From contig NZ_CP042911.1 in assembly GCF_008065095.1 (NCBI RefSeq), forward strand, positions 1,650,001 through 1,682,000: DNA of 32,000 nucleotides, written 5' to 3'. Each line of letters starts with the position of its first letter. Within the stretch, counting starts at the first letter, position 1. The translations under genes and the position numbers were made by a program. The notes below the pieces were generated by a model. The model ran no database searches. It had not been told where the DNA came from and was given only the letters and a program-made list of their open reading frames with translations. Source of the stretch: Gemmata obscuriglobus. Its GTDB lineage: Bacteria; Planctomycetota; Planctomycetia; Gemmatales; Gemmataceae. Shown one piece after another: positions 10,040 to 17,342 of the stretch.

Positions 10040-10370
10040 ACGTGGTTTTCCAAGGGAATCGTCCCGCACGCTATCAGTGCCCGTCAGCAAGGGCAAGTCC
10101 TGACTGTGAACCCTGTATTGGTCCCGGCCACTTGACAAACTGTGGCATGTATTACGGTAACGAGCGCCGGCCATCGCGCTCGCGGCCGTTCGCGACTCGC
10201 TACTACCAGGTCATGACGCGGAGTCAGTGGATGCCGGCGCGGGTCGGAATGGTGATTGAGACACGGCATGCATCGCGCGCGGACGACCGTAAAACGCACC
10301 GGGAAACCGGGCCGGGAAACACTTGGCACGGCTCGTGCATCGGGAGCACGCAACCGCCGTACAATCCCGC

Positions 10371-13019
10371 ATGCTCCGCATCGTCCAGCAGTCCCACGCC
10401 AACGCCGCCAAGGGCTACTACGCCCAGTCCGACTATTACGTCGACGGGGCCGAGTTGCCCGGCGCCTGGGGCGGGCGCGGGGCCGCCCTGCTCGGCTTAT
10501 CGGGTGAGGTGCAGCGCGAGGATTTCCACGCCCTGTGCGACAACCACGACCCGCGGTCCGGGCGGCAGCTGACGGCGCGCACCAAGTCCGAGCGGACGGT
10601 GCTCTACGACTGGAGTTTCGACGTCCCCAAGGCGGTCAGCCTCTTGTATGAGCTAGGCGGTGACGAGCGGATCCTGGACGTGTTCCGGGGAGCCGTGCAG
10701 GACACCATGAACGAGATCGAACCGGAGACCCAAACCCGGGTGCGCAAAGGTGGCGCGGCCGAGGACCGGACCACCGGCAACATGGCCTGGGCGATGTTCG
10801 TACACCGCACCTCGCGCCCGAGCAAAGAGGATCTGAAACCGGACCCGCAGTTGCACGCCCACGTGACCGTGTTCAACGCCACCTGGGATCGGGACGAGGG
10901 CCGGTGGAAGGCGACCCAGCACCGGGACCTGAAGCGCGACGCGCCGTACTGGCAGGAGGCGTTCCACGCGCGGCTGGCGGCGGGGCTCGGGGACCTCGGC
11001 TACGGGATCGAGCGGCGCGGTAAGGACTGGTCGATCGCCGGGATCTCGCCGACCCTCGAAAAGAAGTTCTCGCGCCGTCGGACCGAGATCGACGCGCTGG
11101 CCGAGAAGCTGGGGATGACCGATCCGGCGCAACGGGCCACGCTCGGGGCGACCTCACGACTCAACAAGGTCGACGACGGGATCGAATCGTTGCGCAGCTA
11201 CTGGCGCGGGCGGCTCGACGGCAAAGAGCAGGCGGAACTGGACGGGGTCCGCAAAGCCGCCGAGGGGGGCCTGGCCCCGAGCCGCGCTGTGTCTGTGGAA
11301 GACGCCGTGCGGTATTCGATGGCGCACCACTTCGAGCGGGACGCGGTGGTGCCGGAGAAGCGGCTCCTGGCCGAGGCGCTGCGGTACGGCATCGGGGTGG
11401 TGCGCCCCGAGGGTCTACGGGCGGAGGCCGAGCGCCAGGGGGCGCTGACGACGACCCTCGACGGGCAGCGGGTAACGACCAGCCGGGCGGTACTGGCCGA
11501 GGAGCAGAAGCTGCTCTCCTTCGCCCGCGACGGGCGCGGCACCTGCGTGCCGATCGCCGCCAACCACAGGCTGCGACGGGATTGGCTGAGCGCGGAGCAG
11601 CAAGGGGCAGTGCGGCACGTGCTCGGCTCGTCCGACCGGGTGGTGCTCGCGCGCGGGGTGGCCGGCGCCGGTAAGACCACACTCATCCAGGAGGCGGTCG
11701 AGGAGATCCGCGCCGCCGGACTGCCGGTAGCGGTCCTGGCCCCGACGGCGCTGGCCGCCCGGGACGTGCTGCGCGAGCACTTTGCCGAATCCGACACGGT
11801 GGCCGCGTTCCTGACCGATGAAAAGGCCCAGGCCCGGATGCGCGGGGGCGTAATCTGGGTCGACGAGGCCGGGCTCCTGGGGGTGCACGATCTGGCGCAG
11901 GTGTTTGAGGTGGCGCGGGAGCAGGACGCGCGGGTGGTGCTGATGGGCGACACGCGGCAGCACCGGAGCGTGGCCCGGGGGCCGGCCCTGTCGCTCCTCG
12001 AGTCGCACGCCGGGCTCCCGGTCGCGGAGGTCAAGGACATCCGTCGGCAGAAGGCGGCGTACAAACAGGCGGTCGAACACCTGGCCGCGGGGCGCACGGA
12101 AGACGGATTCGCCGCCCTGGATGTGCTCGGGTGGGTGCGGGAGGCCGGGGAGGATCGCAACGCGACGATCGCAACCGACTATATGGTCGCGACCGGCGGC
12201 GGACAGACGGCCCTGGTGGTCGCGCCCACGCACAAAGAAGGAGAGGCAGTGACGGCGGCCATTCGCGAGCGACGGAAGGCGGCGGGGCAACTCGGCGAAG
12301 AGCGAGCCTTCAATCGGTTGGTGCCGCTCAACCTGACGGAAGCGGAGCGGGCCGACCGGCACGCGTACCGCGGCGGCGAAGTGCTCCAGTTCGTCCGGGG
12401 CGCAAAAGGGCATGTGGCCGGCTCACGGCTCGCGGTCACAGAGCCCGAAGCCGTACCGGTGTCGCTCGCGGGACGGTTCCAGGCGTATCGCCGGGCGGAG
12501 CTGAAGGTGGCCGTCGGAGACGTGATCCGGCTCACCGCCGGGGGCAAGGCGTCCGACGGGTCGCGGCTGTCCAACGGGACCACGTTCACGGTGACCGGTT
12601 TCACGGCCACGGGTGATCTGCAACTCGACACGGGCAAGATCCTGCCGGCCGGGTTCGGGCATCTGGCACACGGGTACGCGAGCACCAGCCACGCGTCCCA
12701 GGGGCGGACCGTGGACCGAGTGCTGATCGCACAGCCGGCCGACACGTTTGTGGCTTCGACCCGAGAGCAGTTCTACGTCTCGGTCAGTCGGGCGCGGAGG
12801 TTGGCCACGATCTACACGGACGACAAGAATGCCCTGCGGGAGGCGGTGCAGCGGGCCGAGTGCCGGGTGTCGGCAACCGATCTGATAGCCTTCCGCGGGC
12901 CGAAACAGCTCAACCGACGAGTGACATTCTTGCAGCGGCTTGCTAGTCTGGCACGCGCGCGACAGTTCGAGGCCGAGCTGGCTCATGCGCGCGACGAGCG
13001 CACCGGACGTGGCGGCTGA
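10371..13019 (+). CDS. MobF-family (TrwC/TraA-like) conjugative relaxase fused to a RecD-like helicase
   Basis: ATG 10371 gives MLRIVQQSHANAAKGYYAQSDYYVDGAE (relaxase motif I with two Tyr pairs). HRTSRPSKEDLKPDPQLHAHVTVFNAT is the His-triad motif III. Helicase Walker A is GVAGAGKTT, Walker B is VIWVDEAGLL, followed by VLMGDTRQH and YASTSHASQGRTVDRVLI. Confidence 0.9.
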   Translation: MLRIVQQSHANAAKGYYAQSDYYVDGAELPGAWGGRGAALLGLSGEVQREDFHALCDNHDPRSGRQLTARTKSERTVLYDWSFDVPKAVSLLYELGGDERILDVFRGAVQDTMNEIEPETQTRVRKGGAAEDRTTGNMAWAMFVHRTSRPSKEDLKPDPQLHAHVTVFNATWDRDEGRWKATQHRDLKRDAPYWQEAFHARLAAGLGDLGYGIERRGKDWSIAGISPTLEKKFSRRRTEIDALAEKLGMTDPAQRATLGATSRLNKVDDGIESLRSYWRGRLDGKEQAELDGVRKAAEGGLAPSRAVSVEDAVRYSMAHHFERDAVVPEKRLLAEALRYGIGVVRPEGLRAEAERQGALTTTLDGQRVTTSRAVLAEEQKLLSFARDGRGTCVPIAANHRLRRDWLSAEQQGAVRHVLGSSDRVVLARGVAGAGKTTLIQEAVEEIRAAGLPVAVLAPTALAARDVLREHFAESDTVAAFLTDEKAQARMRGGVIWVDEAGLLGVHDLAQVFEVAREQDARVVLMGDTRQHRSVARGPALSLLESHAGLPVAEVKDIRRQKAAYKQAVEHLAAGRTEDGFAALDVLGWVREAGEDRNATIATDYMVATGGGQTALVVAPTHKEGEAVTAAIRERRKAAGQLGEERAFNRLVPLNLTEAERADRHAYRGGEVLQFVRGAKGHVAGSRLAVTEPEAVPVSLAGRFQAYRRAELKVAVGDVIRLTAGGKASDGSRLSNGTTFTVTGFTATGDLQLDTGKILPAGFGHLAHGYASTSHASQGRTVDRVLIAQPADTFVASTREQFYVSVSRARRLATIYTDDKNALREAVQRAECRVSATDLIAFRGPKQLNRRVTFLQRLASLARARQFEAELAHARDERTGRGG

Positions 13020-14167: not shown

Positions 14168-14332
14168 TAGAGCCTGTTATGAACCTGGAGCGTGTGAAAA
14201 CGCTTTGATTTCAGCGTGACGGCACGTGCGTGCCAGACGGCCGCGCCCCTTCTTCGATGTCCCAGCCCTGCGAAAACGCAAAAACGCCGGGAAAACGAGC
14301 GGCGGGCTCACCCAGGTTCATAACAGGCTCTA
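14168..14332. mobile_element. 165-bp MITE-like non-autonomous element with 21-bp perfect terminal inverted repeats
   Basis: tagagcctgttatgaacctgg (14168-14188) is the exact reverse complement of ccaggttcataacaggctcta (14312-14332). If the outer TA is a target duplication, the TIR is 19 bp (gagcctgttatgaacctgg). The interior has no ORF and carries several GAAAACG-like motifs. Confidence 0.6.
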
Positions 14333-14334
14333 AC

Positions 14335-14962
14335 CGGACCGCGTCGCGCTCCGTGGCGATGAGCGGGCTGACCGGGACCGGGCAGATGGGCAACCCGAAC
14401 AGGTCGTCGAACAGGCGGCTCACCGCCCGCTTGCCCAGGCGGCACGACCCGGTGAGCATGGCGGCCACCGCTTGGGCACGGGGACCGTACCCGGTGACCG
14501 CGTCCGCGGTCACCGGGGCAACGGTGGTAACCCCGCACCGGGGGCACCGGAGCCGATGGCACCGGTACTCGACCACGTGCGGCTTGACGACCGGGGTCTC
14601 GTGCACCTGGTGCACGCGCGGTGTCGGGTCGTCCCCGACCAGCGGGTGTGCGCACCCGCGGCACACGTCCGGCTTGAGGGCCCGCACCTGATCGGGCGGC
14701 AGCAGGTGCGCTCGGCCTTGGGGTGCCCCGGTTGCCCGCCCCGACGCTTCTCCGACGGCCCATTGGGCGGGGCCGGCTTCACCGGCGGGCCATCGGACGA
14801 CGGGGGCTTCGACGAGTTGGTCGAGTTCTGGTTCAACCGGGCCTGGAGATCGGCGACCGTGGCTCGCAACTCCGTCACCGCCGCTTCCAGCGCGCGAATG
14901 TACGCCACCACCGACGGTGGCAGATCGGGTGGCAGGTCCGGCGGTTGAGGAACAGGTGCCAT
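14335..14962 (-). pseudogene. IS66-family transposase, N-terminal fragment with a frameshift, truncated before the DDE domain
   Basis: From ATG 14962: MAPVPQPPDLPPDLPPSVVAYIRALEAAVTELRATVADLQARLNQNSTNSSKPPSSDGPPVKPAPPNGPSEKRRGGQPGHPKAER, the leucine-zipper/NSxNSSKPPSSD/GGQPGH signature. The continuation (LLPPDQVRALKPDVCRGCAHPL..VHQVHETPVVKPHVVEYRCHRLRCPRCG, the zf-IS66 region) is in another frame, switching near 14700-14712. No DDE region follows. Confidence 0.75.
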
Positions 14963-15064
14963 CGCGTCCGTTCGATTACGGAACACCAGCTCGTGAGGCA
15001 ACCCCGCGCCGACGCGAGTAAAAAGACCTGGAAAATGCACAGCTCGCATCCCGTGAATGCTTAC
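14335..15064 (-). mobile_element. IS66-family element remnant (left end and 5' part only)
   Basis: The outer terminus on the minus strand reads GTAAGCattcacggg (15064 downward), matching the conserved 5'-GTAAGC(G) start of IS66-family IRs as I recall it. It contains only the N-terminal third of the transposase and is cut off at the MITE. Confidence 0.65.
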
Positions 15065-15327
15065 AATTCGCGGAAAGTCGTCATGACGCGTTGCGGCTCA
15101 CAGAGACCATGAAAATGGGGGGCAGGCGATCGGTTACACTGATAGGTGGTCCGCCCCGGAGCGAGGCCGCACGGTACTGGTGCTGCAAGCCCGACAGAAA
15201 GTCTGGCCGGACGGTCCCACGACCACGAGACTGTTGCCCCCGGCGCCCGCGGGGAGCACGCCGAGCAGAATGTTCTGACCCCATCGCCGTCCCCGGGGCG
15301 GGCCGCTCTCCTTGAGGAGGATCGGCC
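15065..15327 (+). ncRNA. Candidate bridge RNA (bRNA/seekRNA) region in the IS110 left non-coding end
   Basis: Call by position only: IS110-group elements encode their guide RNA in the 5' non-coding end. By hand I see a 12-bp long-range helix with one bulged A (15118-15130 with 15283-15294). The 7-mer TCCCACG (15215-15221) is complementary to CGTGGGA (16669-16675) at the right junction. Confidence 0.3.
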
Positions 15328-16584
15328 GTGGACACCGTGTACCCGCACTGCGCCGGGTTGGACGTGCACAAGGATACCGTGGTCGCGTGCGTCCGGCACC
15401 ACGATGGCGGCAAGCGGGCTCGCCAGGAAGTGCGCACCTTCGCCACCCACACCCGGGCCCTGGAGGAGCTGGCCACATGGCTGGCGGCCGAGGGCGTCAC
15501 CCATGCGGCCATGGAATCGACCGGGGTGTACTGGAAGCCGGTGTTCAACGTCCTCGACGGCCGGTTCACGCTCCTGCTGGTGAACGCCCAGCACATCAAG
15601 CAGGTACCCGGGCGCAAGGCCGACGTGGCCGACTGCGCCTGGATCGCCCAGCTGCTCCAGCACGGGCTGCTGACCGCCAGCTTCATCCCACCGACCCGCC
15701 AGCGCGAGTTGCGGGATCGGACCCGGCACCGGTCCCAACTGGGGGCCGAGCAGACCGCAGCGGCGAACCGGGTCCAGAAGGTACTGGAGGACGCCAACAT
15801 CAAGCTGGGGAGCGTGGCCAGCGACGTGCTCGGGGTGTCCGGCCGGGCCATGCTCGACGCCATCATCGCCGGGCAGGACGACCCCGCGGTACTGGCCGAC
15901 TTGGCCCGGCGCCGGATGCGGGGGAAGATCCCGTAGCTCCGGGAGGCGCTCCGCGGGCGGGTGACCGAACACCACCGGTTCCTACTCAAGGTGCTCCTGG
16001 AGCACATCGATCAGCTGGATCGGCTGGTGGCCCAACTGGATGCCCGGATCGCCCAGCTCACGGCTCCGGACGTCGAGGCGCTGAACCTGCTGACCACGAT
16101 CCCTGGAATCCAGAAGCACACGGCCGAGGTGCTGCTGGCCGAGATCGGGCCGACCGTCGACCCGTTCCCGACGGCCGGGCGATGCGCAAGCTGGGCCGGG
16201 ATGTGCCCCGGCAACAACGAGAGCGCCGGGAAGCGGCGGACGGGACGCACTCGGCGCGGGAACCGGTAGCTCCGACAGGCCCTGGTGCAAGCCGGGTGGG
16301 CCGCGTCCCACTCGAAGAAGACGTACCTGGGCGCCCGGTACCGGCGGATGGCCCGGCGGCGCGGCGCCAAGCGGGCCCTGCTGGCGATCGGGCATACCCT
16401 ACTGGTGATCGTGTATCAGGTGCTCCGCCATCGGGTGGCATACCAGGAACTCGGAGCCGACTTCTACGACCGGCTCCAACCCGAACGGTTGGCCCGCAAC
16501 CTGGTGCACCGTCTGGAGCAACTCGGACACAAGGTGACCTTGGAGCCAAGCCCGACGCCCGAGCCGGCAGCACTACCGGAGTAA
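15328..16584 (+). pseudogene. IS110-family transposase (DEDD N-domain plus C-terminal Ser domain) interrupted by two in-frame TAG codons
   Basis: Three track ORFs (15328..15936, 15961..16269, 16285..16584) are all in the same frame (1 mod 3). Read through, they give one typical IS110 transposase: GTG start after GAGGAGGA, then VDTVYPHCAGLDVHKDT, MESTGVYW, KADVADCAWIA ... KIP*LREALRGRVTEHHRFLL ... SWAGMCPGNNESAGKRRTGRTRRGNR*LRQALVQAGWAASH. The TAGs are at 15934-15936 and 16267-16269. Confidence 0.85.
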
Positions 16585-16639
16585 TTTTCAGAGCAGTACA
16601 GCTGTGAACGGATACCACGGCGAATTGCAGTCAGAAGTG

Positions 16640-16677
16640 TCAGAGAAAATCCCACGCCCGTTTCCGAGCGTGGGATT
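16640..16677 (-). terminator. Intrinsic terminator-like hairpin after the GP88-like gene
   Basis: aatcccacgc (16648-16657) and gcgtgggatt (16668-16677) form a 10-bp stem with a 10-nt loop. On the minus strand it starts 6 nt after the stop at 16683 and is followed by UUUUCUCU. Confidence 0.45.
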
Positions 16678-16682
16678 CGCGG

Positions 16683-17342
16683 TCACTGCCGCCAACACTG
16701 GCCGCAGTTCCCACAGTTGACCCCGAACCGCTGACCGGCTGGGGCCTCGTTCGGGCACACCAGCGGCAGCGAGAACGTGGGCCGCGCGTCCCGCAGCGGG
16801 TCGTCGCGGAACACCAGGTTCCCGGCCACCGGTTCGTCGACCGCGGTCTGCAACCAGGCCACCCGCGCCCCTTCCGGGAGCGACTCGGGCATGCCCGTCT
16901 CCGCGTCCGCCGAATACCAGGCGCGGACGTTGCCGAACCCGGCCACCTGCGCCAGTACCGGCGTCATCGCCTCCACCCGCCACGAGCGGGTGTAGAAGTA
17001 AAACGTGGCGACCGGGCACCGGTGGAACACCGACGCCCACTTCGCGGCGTAAGCCGCGTCATAGAAGTCGCCGGACACGTGCACCCGCACCACCAGCGCC
17101 CCTTTGGAACGCACCTCGGCGACCATGCGATCGGCGAAGTCCGCCCGGCGGGACTGCCGGAGGCACCACCGCAGCCGGCGGCGCACCTTGTCGGTGCGGA
17201 ACCGCCCGCGGGTGGCGTAACACACCGACTCGCACACCTGCGACCGGCCCGGGCAGGTGCCGACCGCGGGCAGGTCGAAGTGGTGAATCGCCCGGCCCAG
17301 CTTGGCGTTGCCCAGCGCCAGTAGCGAACGTAACGTAGCCAT
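16683..17342 (-). CDS. Cys-rich phage GP88-like protein (family assignment tentative)
   Basis: Track ORF. ATG 17342 follows GAGGAcagag. MATLRSLLALGNAKLGRAIHHFDLPAVGTCPGRSQVCESVCYATRGRF..., ending CPNEAPAGQRFGVNCGNCGQCWRQ. The NxKLG...LPA..tCPG.S..C...CYA opening matches my memory of the GP88 domain family. Confidence 0.6.
   Translation of the reverse strand: MATLRSLLALGNAKLGRAIHHFDLPAVGTCPGRSQVCESVCYATRGRFRTDKVRRRLRWCLRQSRRADFADRMVAEVRSKGALVVRVHVSGDFYDAAYAAKWASVFHRCPVATFYFYTRSWRVEAMTPVLAQVAGFGNVRAWYSADAETGMPESLPEGARVAWLQTAVDEPVAGNLVFRDDPLRDARPTFSLPLVCPNEAPAGQRFGVNCGNCGQCWRQ

Follow-up and report, generated by a model that had tools for sequence, protein, structure and literature searches.

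The internal loops of bridge RNA, also named seekRNA, reportedly pair with target and donor DNA. In the loops of IS621, the 5' strand repeats the left half together with the CT core, and the 3' strand complements the core and the right half, followed by two handshake bases (PMC11208160, PMC11208158). The authors of the IS621 work described bridge RNA structures as diverse.

The window analysed here is a 32-kb piece of the Gemmata obscuriglobus genome (9.0 Mb, single contig). Within it, positions 15078-15327 very probably represent the left end of an IS110-group element that targets an IS701-family repeat and carries, on the plus strand and ahead of its recombinase gene, the gene for a bridge RNA. 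That this left end encodes a bridge RNA had been claimed in an initial annotation of the window, and the claim was borne out by a covariance model and by the covariation of guides with junctions. The same annotation described a 263-nt gap at 15065-15327, which does separate an IS66-like tip (GTAAGC in minus-strand reading, last base 15064) from the transposase GTG at 15328. Its view that the gap holds no credible ORF is reasonable, the ORFs there being of the usual high-GC kind, and the conservation of 15065-15327 is explained by RNA structure.

The IS66-like element carries a DUF6444 fragment on the minus strand (14510-15049). A search for the other end of this element found no matching inverted repeat, and it is therefore considered truncated. 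Perfect 21-bp inverted repeats, 123 nt apart, lie between the relaxase region and the IS66-like fragment (14168-14332). Further upstream, positions 10323-13019 encode an 898-aa TrwC-type relaxase-helicase (PF08751, AAA_30), from which it follows that the IS cluster sits in a mobilisable island.

Downstream of the gap, an IS110-family transposase pseudogene occupies 15328-16584 on the plus strand and contains in-frame TAG codons at 15934-15936 and 16267-16269. Its product matches DEDD_Tnp_IS110 (PF01548, E = 1e-25) and Transposase_20 (PF02371, E = 3.8e-22), and scores 274 bits against the NCBIfam model NF033542, "IS110 family RNA-guided transposase" (cutoff 140). It thus has the N-terminal DEDD RuvC-like domain and the C-terminal Tnp domain with a catalytic Ser that mark the IS110 group. 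The protein also aligns, distantly, to the IS621 recombinase (PDB 8WT6, E = 7.5e-16, 61 bits), with GLDVHKD, MESTG, KADVAD and NNESAG in register and the DEDD and Ser motifs aligned.

The genome holds a second copy of the element (copy 2, L002), 97% identical and matching window positions 15065-16601. At the two TAG sites copy 2 reads CAG (Q) and TGG (W), and it has frameshifts. Both copies are pseudogenes, because the window copy has the TAG codons and copy 2 the frameshifts. The two TAG codons themselves are plain nonsense mutations and do not point to recoding.

A scan of one genome per species returned 148 transposase relatives, of which 80 loci were kept. These loci belong to Planctomycetota, Acidobacteriota, Actinomycetota, Chloroflexota, Alphaproteobacteria and others. 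One intact orthologue, L026 from a Gemmata MAG, has an open transposase frame. With nhmmer, the non-coding left end itself was detectable at the nucleotide level in loci from Ignavibacteria, Terriglobia, Hydrogenedentota, Brocadia and Actinomycetota. In the alignment ATGAAAA was invariant and the 5' hairpin covaried, and two modules, each composed of a stem, an internal loop and a hairpin, were conserved.

In the MAFFT seed alignment (n = 12), 94.4% of cells in the four helices were paired, and 17 of the 27 base pairs showed compensatory changes. When pairing partners were moved by 1-3 columns in the same seed, 28-49% of cells were paired. Comparative folding across homologues had been suggested alongside the initial annotation, and in the larger set it revealed a conserved, covarying structure: among 64 distinct sequences, 94.3% of cells were paired and compensatory changes were seen in 24 of the 27 pairs, figures that come from an alignment (A9) fitted to the covariance model, which favours pairing. 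Three G-U pairs were invariant or nearly so (12/12 in the seed, 47-63 of 64 in the larger set), which identifies the plus strand as the RNA strand.

The covariance model, R1, was built here from the orthologues and covers only the two conserved loop modules. Its seed excluded five rows that MAFFT had shifted by one column in the target loop, and R1 later recovered all five. Searching with R1 yielded 81 matches at E <= 0.01 across 82 sources, all but one directly upstream of a transposase and on the same strand; nearly every one of the 80 related loci, which come from many phyla, had such a match. The window contained a single match at 15165-15294 (106.9 bits, E = 6e-21), and the two matches across the 9-Mb genome were the two IS110 copies. 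The left end therefore shows what is expected of a bridge RNA gene: its non-coding sequence, read on the strand of the recombinase, contains a structured RNA that is conserved and has two stem-loops with internal loops.

Support for the RNA comes from this model and from covariation, not from published covariance models. An Rfam 15 scan at E <= 10 returned no relevant family and only chance matches (mir-1180, ivy-DE). Single-sequence folding of 15065-15327, also put forward with the initial annotation, gave nothing above shuffles (z = +1.08); the same was true of 15160-15296 (z = +1.38), and the conserved fold was not recovered from either segment.

The RNA region has a 5' stem-loop, P1 (15085-15097, plus strand), which forms the pairs G85-C97, C87-G95, G88-C94 and C89-G93 around a GTT loop and corresponds to the covarying hairpin of the orthologue alignments. 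It is followed by the nearly invariant element of the RNA, AUGAAAAU. Within it, TGAAAAT (15110-15116, plus strand) is nearly invariant and constitutes the left copy of a subterminal inverted repeat, the partner being ATTTTCA at 16584-16590. Across families this repeat is 6-8 bp long, its left copy lies within the RNA region, and its two copies covary (GAAAAC/GTTTTC, GAAATC/GATTTC, GAAAC/GTTTC).

Between ATGAAAA and GAGGCCG lies a variable first module (15117-15164, plus strand), a stem with a hairpin, conserved neither in sequence nor in length (alignments A4, A5). The target-binding loop module (15165-15208, plus strand) has an outer stem GGCCG (15165-15169) / TGGCC (15204-15208) and an inner hairpin TGGTGC..GCCCG (15178-15193); both helices were 96-100% paired and showed compensatory changes. 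The donor-binding loop module (15209-15292, plus strand) has an outer stem GGACGG (15209-15214) / CCGTCC (15287-15292) and an inner hairpin at 15232-15260. Compensatory pairs numbered 8 of 8 in its outer helix and 7 of 9 in its inner helix among the 64 distinct sequences.

The single-stranded sides of these loops differ between families, yet they track the junctions of each element. Comparison of loop nucleotides with insertion flanks had been envisaged in the initial annotation, and covariation was indeed found, but at guides other than those it proposed. Judged from the alignments, the real guides are most plausibly 15170-15178, 15194-15203 and 15261-15268.

The signal was very strong for the 3' strand of the target-binding loop. 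Its guide at 15194-15203 (plus strand), ACAGAAAGTC (ACGGAAAGTC in copy 2), shows identity with the left junction CGGAAAG+TC (15071-15079). In this junction, which lies directly upstream of the 5' hairpin, the left target half is followed by the core AG and by the element's first two bases. Across 58 distinct guide sets, the cognate median was 9 of 10 matches and the non-cognate median 4, and none of the 2,958 non-cognate pairs reached 9. The cognate match to the left junction exceeded the non-cognate median in all but two of the 58 sets.

The 5' strand gave a significant but weaker signal. Its guide at 15170-15178 (plus strand), CACGGTACT (CACTGTACT in copy 2), is complementary to the core and right target half AGTACAG (16595-16601); in copy 2, 7 of the 9 positions match in fixed register, contiguously across AGTACAG. 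Over 47 families, the cognate mean was 4.40 of 8 and the non-cognate mean 3.51 (permutation p < 5e-5), and at least 6 of 8 matches were reached by 21% of cognate and 3% of non-cognate pairs. The column-by-position analysis showed an antiparallel diagonal as a trend. Scored over 600 nt, the complementarity of the 5' guide to the right flank was not significant, and significance was confined to the fixed register beside the right end. Complementarity to the right flank was weak in many families; four CAVYKV copies, for example, have unrelated right flanks. Taken over both strands, the target loop matches and covaries with both target halves including the core, with 7-8 nt per side in the window's own family.

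The donor guide lies on the 3' strand of the second loop (15261-15268, plus strand) and reads CCGAGCAG (CAGAGCAG in copy 2), corresponding to the right end and core CAGAGCAG at 16589-16596. The match covers 7-8 of 8 positions. From family to family the guide changes together with the right end (CAGGGCAG, CGAACCAG, CGAGTCAG and others), with a cognate median of 7 of 8 and a non-cognate median of 5. On the left-end side, the donor loop's 5' strand agrees with the DNA only at the core and one base, and a column-by-position search for RNA columns that covary with the first bases of the left end found none beyond 2 nt. This type of analysis is partly circular where it concerns the left junction and the right end, the sites having been located using the guides; the independent tests of the guides are the cognate versus non-cognate comparisons (58 guide sets; 47 families).

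These comparisons bear on a reading in which the left end would be a leader or regulatory region of the transposase (promoter, attenuator or translation control) and the end repeats would be DNA sites bound by the recombinase. Such a reading would fit the Shine-Dalgarno sequence found inside a hairpin directly before the transposase GTG, and direct or inverted repeats in the DNA could, in principle, account for the matches at the ends; a scan of the left end of the integrated copy for promoter-like and terminator-like sites, which found none, has also been counted on its side. However, the matching segments vary freely between families and follow their own junctions, to the point that no non-cognate pair attained the cognate median. 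They are also located in the single-stranded sides of internal loops, between helices that covary and carry strand-specific G-U pairs, and the protein is homologous to IS621, for which RNA guidance has been shown (PMC11208160). A leader region is therefore very improbable as the explanation of the left end.

Under the preferred bridge RNA reading, the guides spell the target TTCGCGGAA-AG-TACAG. The predicted empty site, obtained by joining the two halves, is TTCGCGGAAAGTACAG, which occurs 20 times exactly in the genome and 18 more times with 1-2 mismatches; a control pattern gave 2. The empty sites form inverted pairs about 1,460 bp apart: they are the 18-bp repeats at the two ends of a 1,476-bp element, which encodes an IS701-family transposase of 457 aa (NF049999, 345 bits). 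The idea, raised in the initial annotation, of reading target specificity from the guide RNA thus proved workable, with a target found 20 times. The position of the IS110 element is explained by its guide, in which the tip of an IS701-family element is spelled out; the Gemmata obscuriglobus genome still has about 20 such ends that are unoccupied.

The IS701-family element, with its 18-bp repeats CTGTACTTTCCGCGAATT, is present in about 19-20 copies, one of which lies at G000:C1:3930089-3931564 (L113:1501-2976). Many right-hand IS701 repeats read ...GGAAACTACAG, in which a C replaces the G of the IS110 core.

In other families, the empty-target test gave no enrichment for G008 and G002 (26 and 19 matches versus 24 and 28 for the control). 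In a Terriglobia genome, enrichment was about threefold (52 versus 17), with no exact site. The target read-out was cleanly confirmed only for the window's own family.

The limits of the element can be drawn from these results. Its extent was taken from the comparison with copy 2, and the core was placed from the guide alignment and from a tandem RE-LE junction in a relative. The 2-nt core AG is assigned to 15076-15077 and 16595-16596, because the two pairings overlap there and the column is nearly always AG. In the relative L064, which carries a tandem pair, the right end ...TTAG joins directly to the first base of the left end, which confirms that the element starts directly after AG. The true limits are consequently about 15078-16596, and the ends defined by homology, 15065 and 16601, include the target halves. 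The element proper (plus strand) is about 1,519 bp long, where counting starts at the base that follows the left core and includes the right core AG (16595-16596).

The tandem pair itself, L064:988-3597 in an Actinomycetota MAG, consists of two IS110 copies in direct tandem, in which ...CGCCTTAG abuts the first base of the next left end. This junction is the donor junction expected of a circular form.

Given these limits, the non-coding ends measure 250 nt on the left (15078-15327) and 12 nt on the right (16585-16596). The long left end, the short right end and a 7-bp subterminal repeat as the sole inverted repeat agree with the IS110 group. At the right end (16584-16596, plus strand), ATTTTCA (16584-16590) overlaps CAGAGCAG (16589-16596), which comprises the left donor half and the core. 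A Bryobacterales MAG (L094, L097, L103) offers a separate observation: its right flanks after position ~2630 contain tandem repeats of the IS110's own terminal 12-mer ATTTTCATAGGA, in at least 3 units.

Outside the element, the left target half AATTCGCGGAA and the core AG (15076-15077) make up the retained flank 15065-15077 (plus strand), which is the inner part of an IS701-type terminal inverted repeat. This flank is common to copy 2, where the sequence is AATTTGCGGAAAG. The retained right target half TACAG (16597-16601, plus strand) is the tip of the IS701-type inverted repeat and completes the 16-mer that occurs 20 times in the genome. The window IS110 sits 5 bp inside the tip of an IS701-type repeat. 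A right-end remnant of the same IS110 brings the right ends in the genome to three; all three run to ...CAGAGCAGTACAG and then diverge, the sequence beyond TACAG being unrelated. Both junctions carry the same AG core, and both copies and the remnant lie in the same target sequence, as is expected of the IS110 group. Both AATTCGCGGAA-AG and TACAG are kept between copies because the guide demands them.

The flanks could also be explained if the homology-defined ends 15065 and 16601 were the true ones, so that AATTCGCGGAAAG and TACAG belonged to the IS110 element and the likeness to IS701 were secondary. The sequence outside the 18 bp is, in fact, the tip of another IS and not IS701 interior, and the 18 bp travel with the IS110 in both cases (2/2). 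However, the joined 16-mer is an exact IS701 terminal repeat with 20 occurrences; position 15069 is C or T, varying as flanks do; corresponding bases differ between the copies of relatives (L032 versus L041); and the L064 tandem junction starts the element right after AG. We consider true ends at 15065 and 16601 very improbable.

Under the preferred limits of 15078-16596, the state of the flanks leaves a point to be accounted for. In both copies, merely 18 bp of the IS701 repeat remain and are followed directly by the tip of another IS, and the rest of the IS701 element was absent beyond the neighbouring IS in the window and in copy 2. If the IS110 had inserted twice independently at almost one and the same base, and the IS701 interior had then been lost each time, the coincidence would be an unexplained one. 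The neighbouring tip in the window (15047-15077) belongs to the IS66-like fragment. In copy 2 (L136:1483-1519, 2433-2451), the neighbour belongs to the IS5 family, measures 951 bp, occurs as a single copy and has 19-bp repeats of its own.

The pairings first suggested for this region fared less well than the RNA itself. The motifs were located as ATCGCCGTCCCC at 15283-15294, TCCCACG at 15215-15221 and CGTGGGA at 16669-16675. The G-rich arm is present, and spans 15117-15130 (14 letters), one base off the 15118-15130 given for it. The 12-bp helix between 15118-15130 and 15283-15294 can be drawn in the window sequence but is not conserved: in 17 orthologues 51.8% of positions paired versus 51.2% after shuffling, with no covariation. 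Its 3' arm pairs instead with GGACGG (15209-15214) in a covarying helix. As for the 7-mer TCCCACG, its partner CGTGGGA had been placed at the right junction and is in fact found 73 nt outside the element end at 16596. Copy 2 reads CCCCACG in place of the 7-mer, and CGTGGGA is absent from its flank. Both pairings are possible in the window sequence, but with the helix at shuffle level among orthologues and the 7-mer's partner past the element, in the hairpin of a neighbouring gene, there is practically no chance that this helix closes the RNA and that TCCCACG guides it to CGTGGGA.

The motif CGTGGGA is one arm of a hairpin at about 16650-16677, directly downstream of a minus-strand GP88-like gene (16683-17342). 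This hairpin (TCCCACG ... CGTGGGA, 16650-16677) is probably a terminator-like structure of the GP88-like gene, and it is the source of the 7-mer match. As a guide and target pair the 7-mer was rejected as a chance match; comparing 263 nt with about 100 nt of flank on both strands, a few such matches are expected by chance.

Both genomic copies carry lesions in the system. When compared with copy 2 and with the cognate DNA, each guide of the window copy shows a single substitution (G15173, A15196 and C15262). Copy 2 has perfect guides, but besides its frameshifts one pair of the second module's outer stem is disrupted. The window copy, with its two nonsense codons and a mismatch in every one of the three guides, is inactive, and neither genomic copy can be active. 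The expectation that the guide RNA is retained was correct in that it survives in sequence despite the interrupted transposase, but with one substitution in each guide the bridge RNA gene of the window is decaying, as is its transposase.

The 3' strand of the first (target-binding) loop module would pair with the bottom strand over the left target half and core AG and over the two element bases that follow, and the 5' strand of that module is complementary to the core and the right target half. The 3' strand of the second module repeats the right end and core. By analogy with IS621, the recombinase-bound RNA would bring together the RE-LE junction of the circular element and the target, and recombination between the two would take place at the core.

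The mechanism class is already known and the element is dead, and the biological surprise is accordingly small. What is gained is that an unannotated 250-nt gap becomes a named RNA gene and that the limits of the IS110 are corrected. For a large IS110 clade, the analysis also provides a covariance model and a read-out rule: the sequence of the left junction is given by the 10 nt that form the 3' side of the first conserved loop.

Certain elements of the IS1111 group resemble the window element in that they, too, are inserted within the terminal inverted repeat of another mobile element, always at one position and in one orientation. The window element differs from them in that their guide RNA is predicted in the right end and their subterminal repeats are long, whereas the RNA of the window lies in the left end and the host is an IS701-family IS.

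The likeness to IS621 is more extensive. Both have a homologous DEDD/Ser recombinase, a long left end with a very short right end, and an RNA that is encoded on the same strand as the recombinase and contains a 5' hairpin and two internal-loop modules. In the target loop, and in part in the donor loop, one strand repeats and the other complements the DNA around a 2-nt core that takes part in both pairings. Two target-loop bases after the core match the donor, like the "handshake" bases, and the target is a repeated genomic sequence in both cases.

Several features set the window element apart from IS621. The protein similarity is distant (61 bits). The clade has an extra variable module (15117-15164) between the 5' hairpin and the target loop, and a covarying subterminal inverted repeat of 6-8 bp whose left copy is inside the RNA region. 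The left-end donor side of the window element is read only at the core and one base. The guide geometry described for IS621 was not seen: the 3' strand repeats the left half and the 5' strand complements the right half. Against the published descriptions (PMC11208160, PMC11208158), the core on the RNA sense strand is AG (CT on the opposite strand) and the order of guide strands in each loop is reversed. Turned round, however, the window scheme is the IS621 scheme with a CT core; in the RNA, as in that of IS621, CU stands at the end of the 5' strand, and AG with 2 further nt is found in the 3' strand. Because turning the DNA round makes the two geometries equal, it is the orientation of the RNA and recombinase genes, taken against the polarity of the site, that is inverted.

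It is possible, though on balance doubtful, that this widespread clade uses a distinct bridge RNA architecture, with genes inverted relative to the CT core (guide-strand order opposite to that of IS621), a handshake-bearing strand that dominates target reading, a third, variable module and a covarying subterminal repeat of 6-8 bp with its left copy in the RNA. In such an architecture, the subterminal repeat could let the RNA pair with the right end. If real and undescribed, it would widen the design rules for bridge recombinases, and the possible variation in guide geometry relative to IS621 may interest those who engineer them.
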